The translations under genes and the position numbers were made by a program. 40,336 bases of DNA from a virus (lineage: Duplodnaviria > Heunggongvirae > Uroviricota > Caudoviricetes), in the IMG/VR virus record IMGVR_UViG_643348545_000005; one strand, given 5' to 3'. Shown in pieces: positions 15,302-38,220 of the stretch (positions are counted from its first letter, which is position 1; each line of letters begins with the position of its first letter). Under the pieces are notes generated by a model. The model searched no databases, had not been told where the DNA came from, and was given only the letters and a program-made list of their open reading frames with translations.

Positions 15302-17347
15302 TTATGCGGCGTTGCTGTTATTGATATCCACCGTCACATACTCAATCAGCACGGGGTAGGTGTCCTGGTTACTGGTGATATCCGTGATCAGCAGTTTGTC
15401 GTTATCCAGTCCTGCCGCCGGGCATTTCGCCAGATTAAAGGCCGCCTGGGTCTGACCGTTGATGACCGGTGTCACGCTGATGCTGTTATTTCCGGCAAAC
15501 CGGAACACCACGTTGTGCCAGTTATGATTAAATGCCCCGAAGGTTCCCAGTTTTGCATTCTGTTGTTTGTGCTGCATCAGATTCAGGTTTGCGCTGTCGC
15601 TCTGGATGAAGAAGGCGGCCAGCATATCGTTTCCTGCGCTGCCTTCCAGAACAACGTTTTCAGGTAGCTGAGAAACCGGCCAGTGCAGAGCCATGGCGAA
15701 GCGGTTTTCTGCCAGCTGAACACCTTCCGGGATTTTGAAACGAAAGGCAATTTCCCCGCCTTTCTGAAGTAATTCAGCTGCTTTACTTGCAGGCACATCG
15801 TGGGCGATTTTCCAGGCTGTTTGTTGCCCCTGGACTTTTTCCACTCGCATGGCTTTACCGCTCTCAGCAGCAGAGTCATTTACGACGGAGGCTTTTCCAT
15901 CTGCCCCTGTCCAGCCCTGTTCTTTCAGTTTCCCTTCCTGTGCGTCTGCGCGATAAGCGACGGCCGTTGTTCTTGCCGGTGATGACTGCGTACCTGCGCC
16001 CGGCTGAGGTGCAGGTGTGGAGGGCTGCGGGCTTTCCGTGGTGGTGCTGTCTGAACCGGCCGTGGCGGGAGGTATTGCGAGCACGCTGAACGGTGCGGGT
16101 GCACCTTTCAGGAAGGCGACGGTCTTCCCGGCATGCATCAGGATCGCCGTTGCCAGGCGGTCAGAAATAATGCCGCGGCGGGCCCATGAACTGAAATGCG
16201 TGGCGCGATCTGAAGAGGTCCAGTTTCCGTTACTACGGGATGCAGCACCGTAATAACCGGCTTCTGCCAGGTCAGGATCTTCGGCAGGCAGGTTTGTTGG
16301 CGTGTTAGCACCTTTCTCATCGGTCATCAGGGGCACAAAATAAATTTTTTGCGCTTCTTTGTTCTGATATGCACCGTAAACCACCGGGTACTGAGAGGTA
16401 TATTGTTGTTTCCAGATATAGGTGGTATCGCCGCAAATCCAGGGAACAAGTGATGCGTTGCCTCCGGTGCACTGTGCAGCATATGCGCTGAGATCTGCGC
16501 GGAACTGATTCACCATGTTCAGGAATAATTGCGGGTACTGTGCGTATGTTGCTGATTTCAGATCAAACTCTCCCAGCATCCAGACCACGGATAACAGGAC
16601 GTTTTTGGGGTTTTTATCCAGCGCGGCTTTTGTACGGGTAAGCAGATCGTTATACAGCGGTTTGCCGACGCCCCACAGGGATGATTCGGCCGTTGCTCCT
16701 GAAGATTCACTGAATGCCCCCTCTGCGCCGGAAGTAAACGCTGACCCTCCACGACAGCAAGGTACCAGGAGGATCCCTGCATTTTTCGGGATAAACGCCA
16801 GTAATTTTTTGGCAATATGTAAACCCTGTCCGACGCAGCCATACTGACCTTTTGACAGATCGGCGTTCGGATGATTAAGGCTGCTCATATCCTGTACATC
16901 ATGGAGACAGTGATCTGCCGGAATAATATCGTTATAGGTACATGCAGCGCCGCCCGGTGTCACCGTACTGCGACGCGCTAACTGTTTAATTCGTGGATCA
17001 GGACTGTCGAATGTATCCGGTAATGGCAGCCCCTCACCGTATGCCATGCCATTGGACTGACCAGCCAGTGGCACCACATAATAAAACTCTGGCTCAGTTG
17101 TGTGTCCAGTGTTGTATCCGTCGGTAGTGCCCGGTACGGGTTTTTCCTCGCCTTCTGGTACCGGAATGGCTGATGGCAGGTCTCTGTCAGTGACCAGTGC
17201 CTGCATCAGGTAAAATGGTGCTCCCGGCTCTGATGCTGAGACAGGTCCCCCAAGAAGTCCCCATCCTTCCCTGAGCATGGGCGCAAGTTTTTCGGCAAGT
17301 TCCTTGTTCGTCATTGCCGTCACAAGCTGATAATGTTTCGGTACCAT
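15302..17347 (-). CDS. NanS-p-like putative sialate O-acetylesterase (N-terminal DUF1737-like region, SGNH/GQSN esterase domain, Ser/Thr/Pro linker, C-terminal lectin-like domain)
   Basis: GQSN block (VVPLAGQSNGMAYGEG) and domain order resemble prophage NanS-p/YjhS esterases. Start moved to the ATG at 17347, which has a GGAG RBS. Confidence 0.55.
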   Translation of the reverse strand: MVPKHYQLVTAMTNKELAEKLAPMLREGWGLLGGPVSASEPGAPFYLMQALVTDRDLPSAIPVPEGEEKPVPGTTDGYNTGHTTEPEFYYVVPLAGQSNGMAYGEGLPLPDTFDSPDPRIKQLARRSTVTPGGAACTYNDIIPADHCLHDVQDMSSLNHPNADLSKGQYGCVGQGLHIAKKLLAFIPKNAGILLVPCCRGGSAFTSGAEGAFSESSGATAESSLWGVGKPLYNDLLTRTKAALDKNPKNVLLSVVWMLGEFDLKSATYAQYPQLFLNMVNQFRADLSAYAAQCTGGNASLVPWICGDTTYIWKQQYTSQYPVVYGAYQNKEAQKIYFVPLMTDEKGANTPTNLPAEDPDLAEAGYYGAASRSNGNWTSSDRATHFSSWARRGIISDRLATAILMHAGKTVAFLKGAPAPFSVLAIPPATAGSDSTTTESPQPSTPAPQPGAGTQSSPARTTAVAYRADAQEGKLKEQGWTGADGKASVVNDSAAESGKAMRVEKVQGQQTAWKIAHDVPASKAAELLQKGGEIAFRFKIPEGVQLAENRFAMALHWPVSQLPENVVLEGSAGNDMLAAFFIQSDSANLNLMQHKQQNAKLGTFGAFNHNWHNVVFRFAGNNSISVTPVINGQTQAAFNLAKCPAAGLDNDKLLITDITSNQDTYPVLIEYVTVDINNSNAA

Positions 17348-17357
17348 AGTGACTCCG

Positions 17358-17633
17358 TTATTTTTCATGAGTGTTCATTCGTGCTGTCCGCTGCCGCTCC
17401 AGCCCGGCAATGGCGGCTTTATCGGCATTACAACTGTCCAGGGCATCTACCAGTCGGTCTCCCCAGTCAGCCACATCAGCCCATATCATGTGTTGCGGCA
17501 GCACCGGTACCGGCGTCTGTCTGGTCAGACTTTCCGGCACGCTCCCGCAAATGACGCCGGTTTTCAGCGGCGCTGGCGTGTTGTTGCAGGCTGTCAGCAA
17601 CATCAGCAGGGGGAGAAGTGCGTGCGCACTCAT
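17358..17633 (-). CDS. lysC: o-spanin (Rz1/LysC-like outer-membrane lipoprotein)
   Basis: Signal peptide with lipobox (LLMLLTAC) when started at MSAHALL; embedded in the 3-prime part of the i-spanin gene in another frame. Confidence 0.55.
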   Translation of the reverse strand: MSAHALLPLLMLLTACNNTPAPLKTGVICGSVPESLTRQTPVPVLPQHMIWADVADWGDRLVDALDSCNADKAAIAGLERQRTARMNTHEK

Positions 17634-29113: not shown

Positions 29114-29518
29114 TTACCTGCGTGATTGCCTGCTGGCGGCCGAATGCACATAGCTGACAATTGCCGCTTTTCGGTTAACGACGGCCAGCGTTCTTGCCAG
29201 TTCTTCGTTGAGTTTTCTGGTCTGTTTTTCGTGGTATGCCTGCATGATTTTTCCTACGGGAGTCAGTGGTTCAGGCTCTGATATGGCGCGACGAGGGCGC
29301 ACGGCAACGATGAATGCGCTTCTGTCGGTGTTGGTTCTTGCAGTCAGGATGTCGGTCATGACGGTATCTGTGCTGCGATCGGGGTTTGCGATCGTGATCT
29401 CCAGTTCGTCGCCTGGCTGTGGTCGAACACTGACGCCGCTCAGCGTCAGTGCCGGAATGCGTCCACTCATGATGGCGCTGAAATCATGGTGCTGGAGTAC
29501 ACAATGGAATCGTGTCAT
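29114..29518 (-). CDS. Hypothetical protein (134 aa) translationally coupled to gene A
   Basis: Start overlaps the A stop (ATGA); same position as the small ORF downstream of A in P2. Confidence 0.5.
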   Translation of the reverse strand: MTRFHCVLQHHDFSAIMSGRIPALTLSGVSVRPQPGDELEITIANPDRSTDTVMTDILTARTNTDRSAFIVAVRPRRAISEPEPLTPVGKIMQAYHEKQTRKLNEELARTLAVVNRKAAIVSYVHSAASRQSRR

Positions 29519-32037
29519 GGGTTCACCTCCGGTTGATCTGCTGCCACCAGGCTTCGTGATTTCTCATCCCAGTGCACAATCCGCCCGTCAGGCAGGCGAA
29601 CGCGTGCACCTCTGTGTACGGAAAGTGCTGCGCCACTGTGTAGCTCCTCGCCCGTCGCGCTCAGTGCCGACTTGATTACGGTGGTGGTGACGTCAGTCAG
29701 CGGCAATGCTGTACGCACATGTATGACGTCATCGGGCGTGGTGGGGCCGCCGGTTTTCACGGTTTTTGTGTCAGATGGCGCATCTTTCAGCTGCCTGGTG
29801 AGTTGTTTTCGCTTTGTGGGGGTCAGTGACCTTAACCACTCACCCAAATCACCTCCCGGGACGACCAGTTTTTGTTCTTTCCTGGTTTCCGGTGGTGGGT
29901 TTTTACCCTCTCCGGTGTCTGTTTTTTCATCATGGGGACAGTTATTGCCACGAGTCCAAGGTGCGGCAAAGCCGCACTCAACGTCAAAACCCTCGTCCGT
30001 GCGGTCTTCGTTTTCCGGCTTACGTCTGACCAGTTTCCAGGTGTCCGGGTGGGTGCATATGGTGTGGCGCTCCCCGAGTAACGGGGCGCGGACGCCGTAA
30101 ATGCGCTGCGGGAATTCGCCGTAGTCGTTGGCCTCATCTGCGGTTTCGTATGCGGTGCGGATCAGGTACAGGTTGCGTGGAATGAGCACGCCGCCCTGAC
30201 GGTTGATGTAGGTGGCAAAACACCCCACGTCAGCGGCGGCCAGAATGGCGTCAATGTCGTCATGGTCCAGGCGCTTCGGTGATGCGGGGTTACGCTCCAT
30301 TTGTCCGGCAAGGCGGCGGAGTTCACGCCATACCTGGCGGGGCGGGATACCGAAGAACTGGAACTGCCGGATGCGGTGGAGACTCGCCCAGGCAATGGCG
30401 TTTTCCACGGTTTCCGCCATGGTTTTTCCCGATTCTTTATCGGCGTAAGGTTTGCCGGTTTTCGGGTCATTGTCGTGAAAGGTGCTGGCGTCCAGGTTCT
30501 TGCCAATATAGGTTGCGATGTAGCTTGCCGGTGTGCCTTTTGCCGGGTCGATTTTTTCGCACTTGAAGCGCGGAGAAATATCATTCCCCAGTTCTGCGCG
30601 ATCTGATTTGATTGCTGCGTCACGCATGATTTCAATGATGCGTTCTTCATTGTCCGGGGCGGTGAATACCAGCATGTGCCAGTGCGGTGTGCCGTCATGG
30701 TGTGGCTCAACGGTGCGCACCCCGTACCAGCTCAGGCCTTCTTTGTTGAGTTTTTTTCTTGCAGCTGCAAAGACGTCGTAAACCAGATAATCACTGGCAT
30801 CGCGCACGGTGGCACCGTTGTATTTCGGGTTCAGGCTGCCGTCCTCGTTTACGCTGTGAAAGCGGGAAGGGCAGGTCACTGTCACGAAGAACGCGGAGTC
30901 ACCACGCGATTCGGCGACCTGTTCCATCCCTCTGACGCAGGCCATCATCTCGTTGCGGCGGTTGCGCGGATTCCCCAGCCCTGACCAGTACACGTCCTCC
31001 AGACTCAGGCGTTCACCGTCTTCGTTTTCAATGTCCCAGCTTTTGAGAAAATCACGGGTGCGCTGGCGTTTCTCCCGGAATTCCTGGAGTGACTCATGGC
31101 TGATGTAGGGGGATGCCTTGCGCGATACTCTTCCGGCGGCACGCAGTAATTCCTCCCGCCAGAGATCAGCGAGGTGGCGCAGCTGGTTGTTCCACCAGGT
31201 AGCGCAGGTGATACGCATTACCGCGCCCGGTACCAGTTCAGGGTCTGGTGCCGTGCGGCGGTCACGTCTGATCTCGAGTGACGGCCAGTATGGTGGGTTC
31301 ACGCCCAGTTTTATTGCCATGCGCGCCAGCTGCTGGTAAGTCAGCAACCAGGTAAACAGGTTATCGTCGCCTTTTCCTGTCCGCTCAGTAACTTCATCAC
31401 ATATGCGTTCCAGTTCGGTGGAAAATGCCGCCGCCGTTAGTGTGGCAAGGCGCTGAATTTGATCACGGTTGAGTTGTGGCAGCATGAGTAATTCATCAAG
31501 GCGATGGCGTGCTGCGGTGGCTTTGAATGCCGTCGTGGCGAAGCATTCATTCACCTGTTCGATGCGTTTCAGGCGTGTGCGCAGTCCACGGCGAACAAAG
31601 TTATCAGCCACGTGTGTATTGTTGTTTTTCACGCCTTCATGGCGGGCGCTTTGCTGTTTGCGGTTTAAACGCGTCAGATCACGAATGAGCGCGTTGCCAA
31701 GAAACGAGGGCAGGGCGCGAAGTTCTGCCATGGCTTCCGATACCACCGTGGGCGGATTCTCGCGTTTGTGCCGCGCCAGTTTTTCCAGTCTGATCCGACG
31801 CTCTTCGTTGTGGTGAAGGTGCGAATTAATTCGCTTCCCTTCGTCTGTGGTTGTCAGAAAGGCGACGGTTTCTTCATCCAGTCTGGCATCAATGCGAATG
31901 TCCTCGTTGATGTAGCTCTGAATGGCCTGGCGTAATGCGGTTGGCTGTGCTCTGCCGAACGTTTCAGGATCGATAACCGGTAGCGGGGCGTTCCACGGGT
32001 ACGCCAGTTGTGCGTTATGGTCGCTCATGCGTCGCAC
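29515..32037 (-). CDS. A: Replication initiation endonuclease A (rolling-circle nickase)
   Basis: 840 aa; similarity to the P2 gpA family, including TVTCPSRFH and the active-site tyrosine region YIATYIGKN. Confidence 0.9.
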   Translation of the reverse strand: MRRMSDHNAQLAYPWNAPLPVIDPETFGRAQPTALRQAIQSYINEDIRIDARLDEETVAFLTTTDEGKRINSHLHHNEERRIRLEKLARHKRENPPTVVSEAMAELRALPSFLGNALIRDLTRLNRKQQSARHEGVKNNNTHVADNFVRRGLRTRLKRIEQVNECFATTAFKATAARHRLDELLMLPQLNRDQIQRLATLTAAAFSTELERICDEVTERTGKGDDNLFTWLLTYQQLARMAIKLGVNPPYWPSLEIRRDRRTAPDPELVPGAVMRITCATWWNNQLRHLADLWREELLRAAGRVSRKASPYISHESLQEFREKRQRTRDFLKSWDIENEDGERLSLEDVYWSGLGNPRNRRNEMMACVRGMEQVAESRGDSAFFVTVTCPSRFHSVNEDGSLNPKYNGATVRDASDYLVYDVFAAARKKLNKEGLSWYGVRTVEPHHDGTPHWHMLVFTAPDNEERIIEIMRDAAIKSDRAELGNDISPRFKCEKIDPAKGTPASYIATYIGKNLDASTFHDNDPKTGKPYADKESGKTMAETVENAIAWASLHRIRQFQFFGIPPRQVWRELRRLAGQMERNPASPKRLDHDDIDAILAAADVGCFATYINRQGGVLIPRNLYLIRTAYETADEANDYGEFPQRIYGVRAPLLGERHTICTHPDTWKLVRRKPENEDRTDEGFDVECGFAAPWTRGNNCPHDEKTDTGEGKNPPPETRKEQKLVVPGGDLGEWLRSLTPTKRKQLTRQLKDAPSDTKTVKTGGPTTPDDVIHVRTALPLTDVTTTVIKSALSATGEELHSGAALSVHRGARVRLPDGRIVHWDEKSRSLVAADQPEVNP

Positions 32038-32441
32038 TCCCCGGCAGTTGCCACCTGAAACGCCGCGCGGTACAGCACGAGAAGGCGCTGGTATTCGCCG
32101 ATAAAACCTTCTGCGGTGTATATACCTTTCACGGCCACGCTGTGGGTTGTCATTTCCAGAACCAGCGCCATCTCTGATGACGACCAGCTGATGGCGGTAC
32201 TGTCGGTGCCGTTGATGTGAAATAAACCCAGTCCATCACCATCACCTTTCACGTCCACGCGGTAACGACCGTCCACGGTGAAGGAGAAATCCCCGTATGT
32301 GGTGACGCTGCGGGCAGCCTGTTTACAGGCGCGGCGGTAATAGTCGTGCCAGTTGTTCAGGCGGGAAGCCAGCAGGGGATCCACCGCCCACATCCAGTTA
32401 AAGAAGTCCTGAATATCTGAAAGTCCCTTAACGCTCTTCAT
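32025..32441 (-). CDS. Hypothetical protein (138 aa), overlaps the start of A
   Basis: ORF immediately upstream of A in the same operon. Confidence 0.5.
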   Translation of the reverse strand: MKSVKGLSDIQDFFNWMWAVDPLLASRLNNWHDYYRRACKQAARSVTTYGDFSFTVDGRYRVDVKGDGDGLGLFHINGTDSTAISWSSSEMALVLEMTTHSVAVKGIYTAEGFIGEYQRLLVLYRAAFQVATAGECDA

Positions 32442-32509
32442 GAGAACCTCCGGTAACAGACGTGCGGAAGCCTCCCGCGTGCAGGTGTGGGATAGCTTCC
32501 GGATGTGGT

Positions 32510-32731
32510 TTATCGGTGCTGGTTGATGAGGCTTTGCAGTTCTGCCAGATCTTCGGCGAGATAGCTGAAGACAGCAGCGCAGTAACGGTTTGACAGCGCG
32601 TGCGTGCGCTCATGCAGCATGTTGATATGCATGATTTGTGCGACGCGTGTTGCGCGGAAAAGTCTGCGGTTGATTTCGCTGCGGATGTGAAGACGCTCAG
32701 CGCGGGCGCGCTGTTGCTTGCGGTTTGCCAT
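32510..32731 (-). CDS. Hypothetical protein (73 aa)
   Basis: Small basic ORF upstream of the 138-aa gene. Confidence 0.4.
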   Translation of the reverse strand: MANRKQQRARAERLHIRSEINRRLFRATRVAQIMHINMLHERTHALSNRYCAAVFSYLAEDLAELQSLINQHR

Positions 32732-33069
32732 GGTGTGGCCTCTTTGCTAGTAAGTTGTGAAAACTCACCATCCAGAGCTGCGAAACTGTGGGTGGCGAGA
32801 CGTACGAGGTTCGCAGTACCGGCTAGCAAAGAACCCGGCCCGACCGAAGTCGGCCCCGTACGCCCCGCCATAATTCTGACGCGAAAAAGACGTGGCAATA
32901 CAGTACGCACAAAAAAACCGCTGGCGCGGTTGTGCGCTTTGCTAGTCGGCAGGCTGCGAAACCCGGCACCCGTTTTATGAGGTGCAGCGGAAATGTAACC
33001 CGACACGACGAGCGCTGGCAAGCGGTTTTTGTGTTGCGTGTTGATGTGGTTAGAATGTTGCGAATTAAT

Positions 33070-33089
33070 ATCACCTGGCAACTGGTGAT
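33070..33089. promoter_or_regulatory. Palindromic operator-like site ATCACC-N8-GGTGAT
   Basis: Perfect 6-bp inverted repeat with an 8-bp spacer, 26 bp upstream of the ATG at 33115 and next to -35/-10-like hexamers (TTGATG ... TAATAT). Confidence 0.3.
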
Positions 33090-33114
33090 TGTCTGCATAC
33101 GCGGGGTGTTTCTG

Positions 33115-33579
33115 ATGAGTGATAAGCTCCCTTCTGATTACGAAATTCTTTTTGACCTGTGGTACAGCTACTGGCTTGAACACATGACAAACCTTCTCCA
33201 CCGTCGCGCTTCCTTGGTTCTGAGGATTAGCGCTTTCCTTGCGATTGTTGCCGCATTCATTTTTTGCGACAGCGCAACGTTTGTTTTCGCCAGTGTGGTG
33301 CTCTTTCTGGTGTGGCAGGTCATGGCTGCCTCTCTTTCTATCAGAGCTGAAAAGGCTGAATGGCAGGCGCTTAGCTATCAAAGACTGATTAGCCAGCGCC
33401 ACGTGCTCACCCCGGAATGCATGATTGCGCGCCTCTCCTTTGTTGAGGAAAGTGACAGCCCCGTGATGGAGTGCATGATCAACCTTGCCTGGAATAAAGC
33501 CTGTGAGACGGTTGGTAGCTCTTCGCGCAATCATGTTTCGATCTCCGGTCGGTTACTCAGTCGCCTGTGTGGCTTTTGA
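33115..33579 (+). CDS. Hypothetical 2-TM membrane protein (154 aa), antisense to the early operon
   Basis: ATG at 33115; two hydrophobic helices (LVLRISAFLAIVAAFIFC, FVFASVVLFLVWQVMAASL); its 3-prime end overlaps the convergent DUF4406 gene. Confidence 0.45.
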   Translation: MSDKLPSDYEILFDLWYSYWLEHMTNLLHRRASLVLRISAFLAIVAAFIFCDSATFVFASVVLFLVWQVMAASLSIRAEKAEWQALSYQRLISQRHVLTPECMIARLSFVEESDSPVMECMINLAWNKACETVGSSSRNHVSISGRLLSRLCGF

Positions 33580-33903
33580 TTTGTGAAGCAGCTGCGCGAC
33601 GGTTTCGCCGGCTGCCCGGTTTTCCGGGAATGACACTGGCATGTTCAGTTTGAGTGCCATTACGTACTCCGCCCGCGCGCCAGCTGAATCCACCCAGCCT
33701 TCCAGTAAGTAAATGGCATCGGCACACATGAGCATCGGAATACAAATGCTCATGTACTGCTGCTGGCTTAATCCTTCCGGCAACGTGGCAGGGTTCAGCA
33801 CAACGTGCCCGTCTGCCGCGAGCCTCATCGCCTCTGTGAAAAACGCCGTTCTGTTGTGATCTTTGTATCCGGTCATTGGACCGGCGATATAAATCACTGC
33901 CAT
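33553..33903 (-). CDS. DUF4406 family protein (nucleoside 2-deoxyribosyltransferase-like)
   Basis: IYIAGPMTG N-terminal motif typical of DUF4406 proteins found in P2-like early regions. Confidence 0.55.
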   Translation of the reverse strand: MAVIYIAGPMTGYKDHNRTAFFTEAMRLAADGHVVLNPATLPEGLSQQQYMSICIPMLMCADAIYLLEGWVDSAGARAEYVMALKLNMPVSFPENRAAGETVAQLLHKSKATQATE

Positions 33904-34112
33904 GCTTTACCTCCCGTATTGCGTGTTGCTGTCAGCACGCGTACTTCTTCCATGTTCGTGGCGCAGAAGTGCGAACCGTTGATAAGGCGGATGTGATGCA
34001 TCTCAGAATTGCGTGAGTCCTGGCGTGTCATGCCCTGGTCAATCAGGCTTTCGTCTACCTCGTACTGACGGCCGTTGGCTGTGAACCGGATAACGGTTGA
34101 TTCCTGGATCAT
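33894..34112 (-). CDS. Hypothetical protein (72 aa)
   Basis: ORF overlapping its neighbours within the early operon. Confidence 0.4.
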   Translation of the reverse strand: MIQESTVIRFTANGRQYEVDESLIDQGMTRQDSRNSEMHHIRLINGSHFCATNMEEVRVLTATRNTGGKAWQ

Positions 34113-34345
34113 TGCTGACTCCTTTGCCCGGCAGATTTCTCGTTGAGCTGCTTTTTAAGGGTGGCGATTTCACTTTCCTGATCCTGAATCACCCGGATTG
34201 CTTCCATGGTGATCCTCAGTGAGATTGCTGAAGCGATAACGAGATCTGGTCTTCCAGCAGCTGCGATAACTTTTGCTGCTTCCTCATGTGCACGGGCGAT
34301 GAGACGCAATTCCCGCAAAAGCTCTTTGTTGTTTTCGCTATTCAT
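34109..34345 (-). CDS. Hypothetical protein (78 aa)
   Basis: ORF overlapping its neighbour within the early operon. Confidence 0.4.
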   Translation of the reverse strand: MNSENNKELLRELRLIARAHEEAAKVIAAAGRPDLVIASAISLRITMEAIRVIQDQESEIATLKKQLNEKSAGQRSQQ

Positions 34346-34380: not shown

Positions 34381-35361
34381 TCACGTACTGGCAGGGGTAA
34401 ACATCACGCTGTAAGTTGCATCTCCCGTTACAGGTCCGCAGTCCGGGCAGTAGCCACCGCCATGGTGACCGCAGGCGTCGCACTGTCTCAGGGTGGCGAT
34501 AACCTCCGGTGCTGATTCCCGGGTTCTTGCGCCAACGCTTCGTGGTGCCTGTATGCAGTTCATCCGGTAACCCCGATAAATGCGTCGTGTTTCCGGTGTG
34601 TCGGAATTGGAGATGGTGATGCTGGTCATGCCGCCCGTTTCCTGTGAAAGGCGGTCAAGCGCTGCCCTCAGACGAACGTGCTCGTCTTCATCGAATGGTT
34701 TTCCGTAGGCGGTAAAATTGTCCCGGCCACTGAATTGCAGGTAAGGGGGATCGCAGTACACGCAAAGCGTGTTGCCCATGCCGAACAGGTGACTGGCAGA
34801 GTTCAGCGTATCCTTAAAATCTGCGTGGATAAGCAGCGTTCGGGTGCTGTTTGCCTTGTCTGCAAATGCGCGGATTTCACGCTCAGGGAAGTAGGGCTTG
34901 CGGTAGCAGCCGAAAGGCACGTTAAAATCGCCTTTTCCGTTCACGCGGAACAAACCGTTAAAGCTGTGCCGGTTCAGGTACAAAAACATGGCGGCCAGTC
35001 GCAGTTCACGGCGGTCGCTTATTCCCGTTCTGCTGTTCAGGAAGGCATGATTCTCTGCGTTAAAGGTTTCGCGAATGATGAGATAGTCACCCCTGTTGTT
35101 GTGGTTCAGGAACAGGGTTTTCGCCTCGTCGATCAGGCTGTCGGTGTTGTCCCTGGCTTGCCGGTAGAAATTAATCAGCGCACCATTGGAATCACCCAGG
35201 ATGTAACGCTTGTAACTGGTGTTCATGAATACCGATGCGCCACCCACAAACGGCTCAACCAGGCAGTCTGCTTCTGGCAGATGCGCCTTCAGTGTGTTCA
35301 TGATGCGACTTTTTCCGCCCACCCATTTAAGCGGCGTGCCGGATAACAGTTCTTTGCTCAT
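34381..35361 (-). CDS. dam: DNA adenine methyltransferase (Dam family, N6-adenine) with a C-terminal Cys4 zinc-ribbon extension
   Basis: LKWVGGK (AdoMet motif I) and DPPY (motif IV) match Dam family signatures; C-terminus CDACGHHGGGYCPDCGP. Confidence 0.8.
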   Translation of the reverse strand: MSKELLSGTPLKWVGGKSRIMNTLKAHLPEADCLVEPFVGGASVFMNTSYKRYILGDSNGALINFYRQARDNTDSLIDEAKTLFLNHNNRGDYLIIRETFNAENHAFLNSRTGISDRRELRLAAMFLYLNRHSFNGLFRVNGKGDFNVPFGCYRKPYFPEREIRAFADKANSTRTLLIHADFKDTLNSASHLFGMGNTLCVYCDPPYLQFSGRDNFTAYGKPFDEDEHVRLRAALDRLSQETGGMTSITISNSDTPETRRIYRGYRMNCIQAPRSVGARTRESAPEVIATLRQCDACGHHGGGYCPDCGPVTGDATYSVMFTPAST

Positions 35362-35585
35362 AACGCGGCCTCTTTGTTATAGGTTTCGTGCGTTAATAAA
35401 TCCCATGACGCCCCGTTGTTTTTGCTCAGCAATCGCCAGCGAAAACCGATTCTTATTACCAGGTAGTCGTGGGGTTTTATGCGTGAAAAATTCCGCACGC
35501 CGTCGCGGAATAAACGCAGCGATGCGCGGGCTTTTCTTTCCACGTTCAGGGGGGGGCAGCAACACACATTCAGGATGGCGACCAT
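35358..35585 (-). CDS. Hypothetical small protein (75 aa)
   Basis: ORF wedged between the exonuclease and dam genes; atypical composition, so low confidence. Confidence 0.25.
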   Translation of the reverse strand: MVAILNVCCCPPLNVERKARASLRLFRDGVRNFSRIKPHDYLVIRIGFRWRLLSKNNGASWDLLTHETYNKEAAL

Positions 35586-36512: not shown

Positions 36513-36608
36513 TTATTCCCAGATCTTCAGGGCTAACCAGATAAGCGCACTCACCTGAAATATCACCCATACAGTGGCGATGGTGTGTATTGCTTTTACA
36601 TTCTTCAT
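36513..36608 (-). CDS. Candidate small hydrophobic peptide (31 aa)
   Basis: My translation MKNVKAIHTIATVWVIFQVSALIWLALKIWE; below the ORF-track size cut-off. Confidence 0.2.
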   Translation of the reverse strand: MKNVKAIHTIATVWVIFQVSALIWLALKIWE

Positions 36609-37764: not shown

Positions 37765-38220
37765 ATGAAAATTATCCTTACATCCGAATCTGGGCGGTGG
37801 TTTTGGGTTTTGCGTGCTGCCGAACGTGAGCTTGCAAGAAGTGAGGGGTTTCACAGTTTTGTTGATGCCCGTGCTCATGCAGAACTCTTTCGTATTGGCG
37901 CGCGTTCCCCTGTGATTCTTCGCTCTGTAAAAAAATGTGCTCAGTCACTGGTGAATGATAAATATCACCTTGTCTTCTTGGTTACGGAATCTACGTCTGG
38001 TTTTTGCTTGTCACTTTCGTATCCTGAAAACATTCACTTGTATGATGAGGTGTTTGAGTCTTTTGAAGGTGCCGAATCGTTTGCTCAACATCTCTCATAC
38101 GATGTGTTCGAACTGGCTGATATTTATGATTGTTGGGGGTCGCTTATTCATCCCTTGCAACATTCTCGTTTTTACAGAAATGTGTTTGATATTGATGATG
38201 ATCATCCATCAGCCTGGTAG
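37765..38220 (+). CDS. Hypothetical protein (151 aa) in an AT-rich island, antisense to the early operon
   Basis: Long ORF with plausible protein composition; its ATG is back-to-back with the minus-strand ATG (CATATG at 37762-37767). Confidence 0.35.
   Translation: MKIILTSESGRWFWVLRAAERELARSEGFHSFVDARAHAELFRIGARSPVILRSVKKCAQSLVNDKYHLVFLVTESTSGFCLSLSYPENIHLYDEVFESFEGAESFAQHLSYDVFELADIYDCWGSLIHPLQHSRFYRNVFDIDDDHPSAW

Follow-up and report, generated by a model that had tools for sequence, protein, structure and literature searches.

What is encoded in the gap between two oppositely oriented genes in the early operon of a P2-like prophage? The prophage lies in a 40,336-nt stretch of IMG/VR virus record IMGVR_UViG_643348545_000005, and this whole stretch is the window analyzed here. 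The gap measures 383 bp and extends from a minus-strand gene for a 73-aa protein (32510-32731) to the ATG of a plus-strand membrane protein open reading frame (ORF) at 33115. A preliminary description of region 32732-33579 pointed out repeated motifs and hairpins, preferred to see them as regulators of the membrane gene, and offered a structured noncoding RNA as a further option. The gap in fact contains two Rfam-defined RNAs, both on the minus strand, which bears out that last option. We put at about 80% the probability that they make up an RNA immunity module of the P4 (seqA-CI-seqC) and P1 (immI c4) type, positioned in the early operon ahead of the 73-aa gene, a remote homologue of the P4 epsilon (E) antirepressor.

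Repeated Motifs in the 383-bp Gap

The motifs, the hairpin, a palindrome, and a gene overlap of the preliminary description were all found where it had placed them. Motif counts were compared with those in 100 shuffles of the window. CTTTGCTAG is present three times, at 32742-32750 and 32937-32945 on the plus strand and at 32823-32831 on the minus strand. These are its only copies in the window, where 0.17 would be expected by chance; none of the shuffles reached three. The two copies of GCTGCGAAAC are confined to 32777-32786 and 32953-32962 (0.15 expected; two copies in 0 of 100 shuffles). The repeated motifs are thus far above chance level. The hairpin cgcac-aaaaa-aaccgc-tggc-gcggtt-gtgcg occupies 32906-32936 and corresponds on the minus strand to an intrinsic terminator, AACCGCGCCAGCGGTT plus T7.

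An IsrK-like RNA and a C4 RNA on the Minus Strand

Positions 32000-34200 were scanned with Rfam, and then the whole window at gathering thresholds. Two full-length matches were obtained in the gap. The first, a 75-nt IsrK-like small RNA (32911-32985, minus strand) homologous to P4 seqA, matches RF01394 with 64.3 bits (gathering threshold 50, E = 6e-13) over model positions 1-77 of 77. Directly downstream of its terminator lies the second, a C4 antisense RNA homologous to the P4 CI RNA (32788-32875, minus strand), which matches RF01695 with 82.8 bits (gathering threshold 45, E = 3e-16) over model positions 1-87 of 87. Its predicted mature core (∼32793-32870) folds on its own to the model structure, with a free energy of −47.1 kcal/mol; the long closing stem around two hairpins is as in other C4 RNAs, and comparative data support it.

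The IsrK-like RNA has the signals of an independent transcript and stands directly upstream of the complementary C4-like RNA, as members of its family do. A consensus scan located a sigma-70-like promoter site at 32992-33021 (minus strand; TTGCCA-18 nt-TACATT), the −10 box of which ends 6 nt ahead of position 1 of the Rfam match. Both hexamers are unchanged in four diverged relatives, and the spacer between them is variable. At the other end, a Rho-independent terminator (32911-32931, minus strand; AACCGC-GCCA-GCGGTT plus U7) was found by a terminator scan; it equals the terminal hairpin of the Rfam isrK model and is the hairpin that the preliminary description gave as its example. The family c4-a1b1 (RF03163) reached 19.9 bits at 32946-32998, below its gathering threshold of 46.7, and P4 itself is likewise sub-threshold under this model, at 44.1 bits. 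By its sequence, the upstream RNA is better described by isrK than by c4-a1b1. A second promoter-like site (32898-32870) was tried as a C4 promoter and rejected: transcription would start inside the closing stem, and the −35 box reads TCGCCA in most relatives.

The Repeats Are the Recognition Elements of an Antisense System

The Rfam alignment places two recognition elements in C4, both read on the minus strand. Loop a' (UUCUUUGCUAG, 32823-32833) is the loop of hairpin 2, and b' (CUGCGAA, 32810-32816) is the single-stranded stretch between hairpin 2 and the closing stem. Loop a', as CUUUGCUAG, and b' are exactly complementary to two further pairs of minus-strand sites. The upstream pair is contained in the IsrK-like RNA, where b1 (UUUCGCAG, 32954-32961), the complement of b', forms the loop of hairpin 2 inside the GCTGCGAAAC copy at 32953-32962, and a1 (CUAGCAAAG, 32937-32945), the complement of the a' loop, is itself a CTTTGCTAG copy. 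The downstream pair is located in the mRNA leader of the 73-aa gene. Here b2 (UUUCGCAG, 32778-32785) is inside the second GCTGCGAAAC copy (32777-32786), and a2 (CUAGCAAAGA, 32739-32750) overlaps the Shine-Dalgarno sequence AAGAGG (32739-32744), which stands 7 nt before the ATG at 32731. The downstream complement of a' itself spans 32741-32750, so that, as in other C4 systems, it overlaps the ribosome-binding site (RBS) of the first gene. The repeats are therefore the recognition elements of an antisense system.

The a'-a2 duplex comprises 11 bp (−15.2 kcal/mol) and covers AAGAG; the b'-b2 duplex comprises 7 bp (−10.5 kcal/mol). Folded as a whole, the 270-nt leader has a free energy of −111 kcal/mol (z = −3.7), with a1/b1 paired in cis with a'/b'. 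By analogy, this predicted fold resembles the inactive "structure A" of Gifsy-1.

Three Sites Change in Concert among Relatives

In a megablast search, segment 32517-33042 had matches in P88-type phages (Xuanwuvirus) and Citrobacter phage phiSM, where the similarity breaks off a short way upstream of the promoter. The RNA module was present in all of the 80 IMG/VR loci that encode the 73-aa protein. In a four-way alignment a', a1, and a2 shift in concert, as do b', b1, and b2, and pairing was assessed on an alignment of 48 sequences, 45 of them distinct. The pairs between C4 and the leader (a'-a2 and b'-b2) are formed in 97.6% of alignment cells, against 69.9% for shuffled sequences (the observed value was reached in 0 of 500) and 38%-50% for slid ones, and 10 of the 17 pairs have changed on both sides (6 of 10 for a2 and 4 of 7 for b2). 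Those between IsrK and C4 (a1-a' and b1-b') are formed in 99.3% of cells (69.1% shuffled, 27%-51% slid), with both-side changes at 11 of 16 pairs; seven of the nine a1 pairs with a' have changed in this way, and b1 co-varies with b'. Taken alone, b' pairs with b2 in 100% of cells and with b1 in 99.4%. Kinship among the sequences means that these cell counts overstate the number of independent events.

The internal stems contribute 43 pairs, drawn from three C4 helices and three IsrK helices. They are paired in 99.8% of cells (98.9% shuffled, 37%-49% slid), the terminator stem in 99.3%, and only four have changed on both sides, all of them in C4 helices. The comparison of structure and covariation proposed in the preliminary description thus yielded full-length C4 and isrK matches with near-complete stem pairing. 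Variation is concentrated in the recognition elements: column entropy is 0.75-0.92 bits in the six sites and 0.185 bits elsewhere, and 27 of the 30 most variable alignment columns fall inside the six sites. The relatives comprise 12 a' types and 6 b' types in 20 combinations, each a' type being matched by a1 and a2; P88, for example, combines a' CUGUAGUUG with b' GUGGAAA. As we read the alignment, so many distinct compensated types are impossible without selection for pairing.

This evidence bears on the possibility that a P4-like satellite once recombined into a P2-like prophage and left the module behind as an inert remnant, now without function. The combination of the RNA pair with an epsilon homologue is a hallmark of P4, and in a survey of P4-like elements delta alone among the P4 genes had clear homologues in P2-like phages (PMC8628076). 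In the early regions of P2 and 186, which the preliminary description suggested for comparison, neither C4 nor isrK was matched even at E = 0.1; the module thus belongs to the P88-type lineage and is not general to P2-like phages. A remnant, however, would not be expected at the same position in all 80 loci, active phages such as P88 and phiSM included, with its stems intact and its promoter, terminator, and Shine-Dalgarno sequence all conserved. Three-way compensatory change over 12 × 6 types requires ongoing selection, and we give the idea of a functionless remnant almost no credence.

Individual loci depart from the common pattern. Locus L011 (219-488) is a natural chimera in which a1/b1 (CAAACGAAG/TTTCCAC) mismatch the a'/b' of the same locus (CTTTGCTCT/TTGAGAA) and a2/b2 match them; a recombination breakpoint seems to lie in the interval from IsrK to C4. 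L083 (121-390) has a tandem duplication that places two different a' loops (CTTTGCTCT and CTTGTGTAG) in one C4, and L024 (3242-3511) has a deletion within b1. Two P88-type elements that IMG/VR lists under one source genome (L025 and L078, both UViG 2537561977) have differing types, CTGCGTTTG/GTGGAAA and CTTTGTTGA/CTGCGAA. This difference is what heteroimmunity would require, in a single case.

Genes under Proposed C4 Control

Three minus-strand genes follow the module. The 73-aa gene, the first under the proposed control, matches the Pfam family PF25738 ("Derepression") marginally, with 28.2 bits against a cutoff of 27. Its product is 32% identical to P4 epsilon over 50 aa in BLASTP (E = 7e-8), and a profile of its family aligns with epsilon in hhalign at a probability of 90% (E = 1.6e-6). 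Relatives in P88 records are annotated "derepression protein." A tblastn search with the 73-aa protein against all phages reached P88-type phages only and not P4, so the homology to epsilon is seen by pairwise and profile comparison. A contig scan with P4 epsilon retrieved only six loci and added little. Synteny with the RNA pair supports the assignment of the gene as epsilon-like.

The 138-aa gene (32025-32441) starts 68 nt after the 73-aa gene and matches phrog_3237 (E = 7e-52). Its product showed no similarity to P4 orf151, either directly or through a tblastn search against all phages. Its stop overlaps the start of replication gene A (ATGA, 32025-32028), to which it is evidently translationally coupled. 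Gene A (29515-32028), the distal gene of the unit, encodes a nickase of the P2 gpA family (Pfam Phage_GPA, E = 2e-108). Of the 72 loci with sufficient sequence on that side, 71 have a gpA homologue after the module.

From these parts, and from what is known of P4, P1, and Gifsy-1, a mechanism can be proposed. The promoter would be active in the lysogen, and most transcripts would end at the IsrK terminator. Read-through would yield a C4 transcript that is processed to mature C4, as in the three known systems. C4 would then pair with b2 and a2 and block ribosome entry to the 73-aa gene, and this block, by way of polarity or premature termination, would silence the 138-aa gene and gene A as well. 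In the lysogen, both the antirepressor-like protein and replication would be kept silent by this means. Acting in trans, C4 would confer immunity to incoming phages of the same a/b specificity, and the many a/b sequence types would represent immunity specificities. The IsrK-like RNA, with its decoy sites, may modulate C4, either by titrating it and so activating the genes downstream, as in Gifsy-1, or by offering a further target site, like P4 seqA. The repressor of the prophage adds support by analogy. It belongs to the P2 C family, being 35%-42% identical to the C proteins of P88 and P88_4B11, and P4 E is an antirepressor that binds P2 C (PMC2995052).

Several points weigh against an immunity module of this kind. 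Transcription, processing, and repression are all argued from homology and covariation, and the covariation counts take in related sequences, so that independent changes are fewer than the counts of cells imply. The homology to epsilon is remote, with a Pfam score 1.2 bits over the cutoff and a tblastn search that stops short of P4. IsrK action could run in either direction, decoy-activator or co-target. The upstream mismatch in L011 suggests that matching at the upstream sites may not be essential. A strong IsrK terminator stands in the path of early-operon transcripts toward gene A and leaves lytic expression of A unexplained. A second promoter-like site does exist at 32898-32870, with an unconserved −35 box and a start inside the C4 stem.

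The same parts can be given a different emphasis, as an induction trigger. Under stress, the IsrK-like RNA would sequester C4 or remodel the leader, and the epsilon-like antirepressor would then inactivate the P2 C-type repressor, leading to induction. P2 is regarded as non-inducible. The a1 and b1 sites of the IsrK-like RNA are perfect C4 decoys, and in Gifsy-1 the supply of IsrK in trans raises translation of the downstream antirepressor ∼140-fold and brings about prophage induction (Hershko-Shalev et al., PMC4825925). P88 encodes a repressor of the P2 C type, and mitomycin C treatment of its lysogen yielded phage (PMC5285337). Against this, the homologous seqA RNA of P4 is required to establish immunity and not to relieve it (PMC3632133), and both the antirepressor activity of the 73-aa protein and its expression in this phage are assumed by analogy. 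We regard a trigger of induction as possible but tentative, and prefer to describe the locus as an immunity module.

Comparison with Known Systems

IsrK has been equated with seqA and C4 with the CI RNA, and related systems have been reported in P1, P7, N15, and lambdoid prophages (Barquist et al., PMC3632133). Under the models used here, the P4 immunity region scores 60.8 bits for isrK (seqA) and 74.9 bits for C4 (CI RNA), and both matches are upstream of epsilon. The P4 arrangement (PLE - seqA - CI RNA - seqC - epsilon - orf151 - alpha) is like that of the window in RNA families, order, and strand. In both, the antisense RNA has target sites to either side, the next conserved gene is a homologue of epsilon, and the distal end is occupied by a replication initiator. 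The host elements differ. The window contains a complete P2-like phage of the helper type, with P2-family capsid, GPO scaffold, terminase, portal, sheath, baseplate, and tail fibre genes, as well as an integrase and a Cox-like protein; it is not a P4-like satellite, having its own structural genes and gpA downstream of the module, in a comparison that included no search aimed at sid, psu, and delta. The replication gene is thus a gpA nickase, whereas that of P4 is the alpha primase-helicase, and the middle gene is unrelated to orf151. The target on the epsilon-like Shine-Dalgarno sequence is 57 nt after C4 here, as compared with ∼245 nt, with nested small ORFs, in P4.

In the immI region of P1 and P7 (c4 RNA - icd - ant), a C4-family RNA with a'/b' is accompanied by a1/b1 upstream and by a2/b2 that cover the first gene's RBS. 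Heteroimmunity in these phages is a matter of differing specificities, and the effector genes come after a small first gene of ∼73 aa. The window shares the C4 RNA with a'/b', the flanking a1/b1, the RBS-covering a2/b2, and a first gene of ∼73 aa. It differs in that the first gene is epsilon-like, an ant homologue is absent, and the upstream element matches isrK and not c4-a1b1. NCBIfam and PADLOC scans of the 73-aa, 138-aa, membrane, and DUF4406 proteins gave no matches; an Icd-like assignment of the 73-aa protein is therefore unsupported.

The third counterpart is the region IsrK - orf45 (STnc1160) - AnrP of Gifsy-1 in Salmonella. There, too, IsrK has its own promoter and a leaky terminator, with a complementary region and an antirepressor gene downstream; read-through of the terminator extends into a region that is processed to a stable RNA of ∼80 nt, STnc1160 (PMC4825925). 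Unlike the window, Gifsy-1 is a lambdoid prophage with a different antirepressor, feeding a Q-like antiterminator, and its IsrK has been shown to activate translation.

Shared specificities between P88-type and P4-like elements would imply cross-immunity. No a' or b' sequence was common to 83 P88-type and ∼84 P4-like sequences; about 80 P4-like loci contain at least 10 a' and 4 b' types, none of them found in the P88-type set. Cross-immunity thus has no support in this sample. One class among the P4-like loci (L094-L173) has a b' (AUUUCCACC) that is the complement of a b' (UGUGGAAAC) found among the P88-type loci (L007-L086). The P4-like AUUUCCACC is identical to the P88-type b1/b2 targets, and mutual antisense pairing is possible in principle. 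This complementarity may be due to chance, given how short and constrained the motifs are.

The feature in the window is, by its sequence, an unannotated member of the known IsrK/C4 class (P4 seqA/CI, P1 c4), found in an element that is unusual as its host. An Rfam scan is enough to recognize it; some further value comes from the P2-like setting and from the combinatorial data on specificity. What had been an unexplained structured spacer becomes a defined, testable regulatory switch. The P2-like prophages concerned are a very common group, and in them a P4/P1-type cassette with an epsilon-like gene is placed immediately ahead of the replication gene. The 12 × 6 natural compensated variants are a ready set of orthogonal antisense pairs and a clean natural case of three-site RNA co-evolution. 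A broader proposal is that a large clade of helper-type P2-like phages (P88/Xuanwuvirus and relatives) has a second immunity layer of the P4 type, a combinatorially diversified IsrK/C4 switch that gates an epsilon-like antirepressor and gene A. We consider this speculative and rather unlikely. If true, the hallmark immunity and derepression cassette of a satellite would be shared with, or taken from, its helpers, and could act in conflicts between helpers or between helper and satellite; examples would be the self-induction of otherwise non-inducible C-type prophages and the derepression of rival P2-like prophages.

The Membrane Gene and the Palindrome

The plus-strand ORF at 33115-33579 encodes a 154-aa membrane protein with two transmembrane helices (phrog_6315, E = 2.5e-65) and runs antisense to the early operon. 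The preliminary description was right to treat it as a real and independently placed cargo gene. Its plus frame is the conserved one: in a comparison with a copy of 82% DNA identity, it shows 80.6% amino acid identity and the other frames 59%-73%. The protein matches homologues in a Yersinia phage (E = 2e-23) and Fels-2 (E = 2e-13); the best other frame reached E = 4e-6, with the Yersinia phage. A profile search of the family collected 54 proteins, the named sources of which are all Enterobacterales and the full-length members mostly 148-161 aa. All homologues have a start equivalent to the ATG at 33115, and they have an N-terminal LWYSYWLE motif in common. The RefSeq start, GTG at 32932 (215 aa), crosses the IsrK gene and, judged by these homologues, is too long.

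Of the 80 loci, 16 have an antisense homologue just ahead of the module, in alleles with 98%, 80%, 38%, and 33% identity. Fels-2 (L005 3976-4432, plus strand) and Yersinia phage vB_YenM_42.18 (L004 3997-4462, plus strand) have unannotated homologues that are likewise antisense to the early operon, at a different position in it and with no C4 nearby. The ORFs called opposite them instead are STM2733.1 and part of the Fil-like gene in Fels-2, and a 221-aa hypothetical protein in the Yersinia phage. This distribution makes the membrane gene facultative cargo, outside the RNA module.

A perfect palindrome, ATCACC-N8-GGTGAT, is located at 33070-33089, 26 nt upstream of the membrane ATG. It is unique in the window, where 0.02 copies are expected by chance, but we estimate that any 6-bp inverted repeat with a gap of 0-12 nt is expected ∼0.2-0.4 times in a stretch this short, so the palindrome alone is weak evidence. 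It goes with the upstream region of the window type, being identical ahead of the 98% and 80% alleles, and the 38% allele has a different inverted repeat in its place. Two roles for the palindrome were tried and rejected. An RNA hairpin is not indicated, the 5' untranslated region (UTR) of the membrane gene being no more stable than its shuffles (z = 0.0). A repeated operator is not indicated either: the single near copy, ATCACC-N8-GGCGAT at 36562-36581, has one mismatch and is compatible with chance. The near copy falls within a minus-strand ORF for a hydrophobic product of 31 aa (36513-36608), where 290 bp of the early operon are poorly annotated.

Could the repeats, hairpins, and palindrome nevertheless form a regulatory region for the membrane gene, with a toxin or exclusion protein under its own regulator, as the preliminary description preferred? 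The gene is real, antisense, and independently placed, the palindrome is preserved ahead of an allele that has diverged to 80% amino acid identity, and a TAGAAT box (33051-33056) aligns with a TATAAT box upstream of the 38%-identical allele. For the repeats, however, the idea is refuted. They belong to RNAs on the opposite strand, which point to the 73-aa gene and gene A, and their pairing and covariation tie them to one another and to the RBS of the 73-aa gene. Every related locus has the module and only a fifth of them the membrane homologue, one membrane allele accompanies three different a' types, and neither C4 nor IsrK is near the Fels-2 or Yersinia phage homologues. Homology to P88-type phages that lack the membrane gene ends at ∼33042, before the palindrome, and the 5' UTR shows no excess stability. 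We consider such a regulatory region very improbable. On this sequence comparison, the membrane gene and its palindrome are probably facultative cargo, unrelated to the immunity module and inserted just ahead of its promoter.

A partial target of the C4 loop in the membrane mRNA (GCTATCAAAGA, 33374-33384) was rejected: it is mismatched at its center, and the membrane allele does not follow the a' type. An AlphaFold model of the membrane protein (pLDDT 86.8) consists of a long helical hairpin and short helices. Among its top viral fold matches, 7 of 31 are annotated SLATT (SMODS and SLOG-associating 2TM effector); the best Foldseek E-value is 2e-3, with TM-scores of 0.2-0.5, and Pfam gave no SLATT match at E ≤ 1. 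The 3' end of the ORF shares 27 nt with the convergent DUF4406 gene (33553-33903, minus strand; Pfam PF14359, E = 1.5e-33), the last gene of the early operon before the module. A terminator-like hairpin with a T-rich run (33559-33584, plus strand) is found at the membrane gene stop, inside the 3' end of the DUF4406 gene.

Distribution and Annotation

With 32400-33950 as the query, matches were found in 1,278 of 5,426 complete E. coli genomes (about 24%). Most are 80%-90% identical, and in that band the phage matches span only the module third of the query. A full-text literature search found no paper linking P2-like phages with C4. The RNA genes are unannotated in all records examined (P88, P88_4B11, and two E. 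coli RefSeq records), and three of these call protein ORFs over them. RefSeq extends the membrane gene over 32932-33114. P88_4B11 has a 205-aa "transcriptional regulator" (L002 3909-4526, minus strand) that runs across the epsilon-like gene, C4, and IsrK. In P88, the strand opposite C4 is annotated with a hypothetical protein of 62 aa (L001 4276-4464, plus strand). The membrane gene start and several overlapping "hypothetical proteins" need correction.

Other Genes in the Window

A scan for tRNA and tmRNA genes found none in the window. A 151-aa ORF (37765-38220, plus strand), a RefSeq hypothetical protein with no Pfam match, runs against the minus-strand early operon near the Cox-like gene and may be another antisense cargo gene in the style of the membrane gene. 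A 75-aa ParE-like toxin-domain gene (35358-35585, minus strand; Pfam PF24732, E = 1e-17) is flanked by genes for a 3'-5' exonuclease and a Dam methylase and shares 4 nt with the start of the latter; no partner antitoxin was found. Among the tail genes, a 688-aa protein (15302-17368, minus strand) combines DUF1737, a SASA sialate/carbohydrate acetylesterase domain, and DUF6645, and may be a receptor-modifying tail enzyme.

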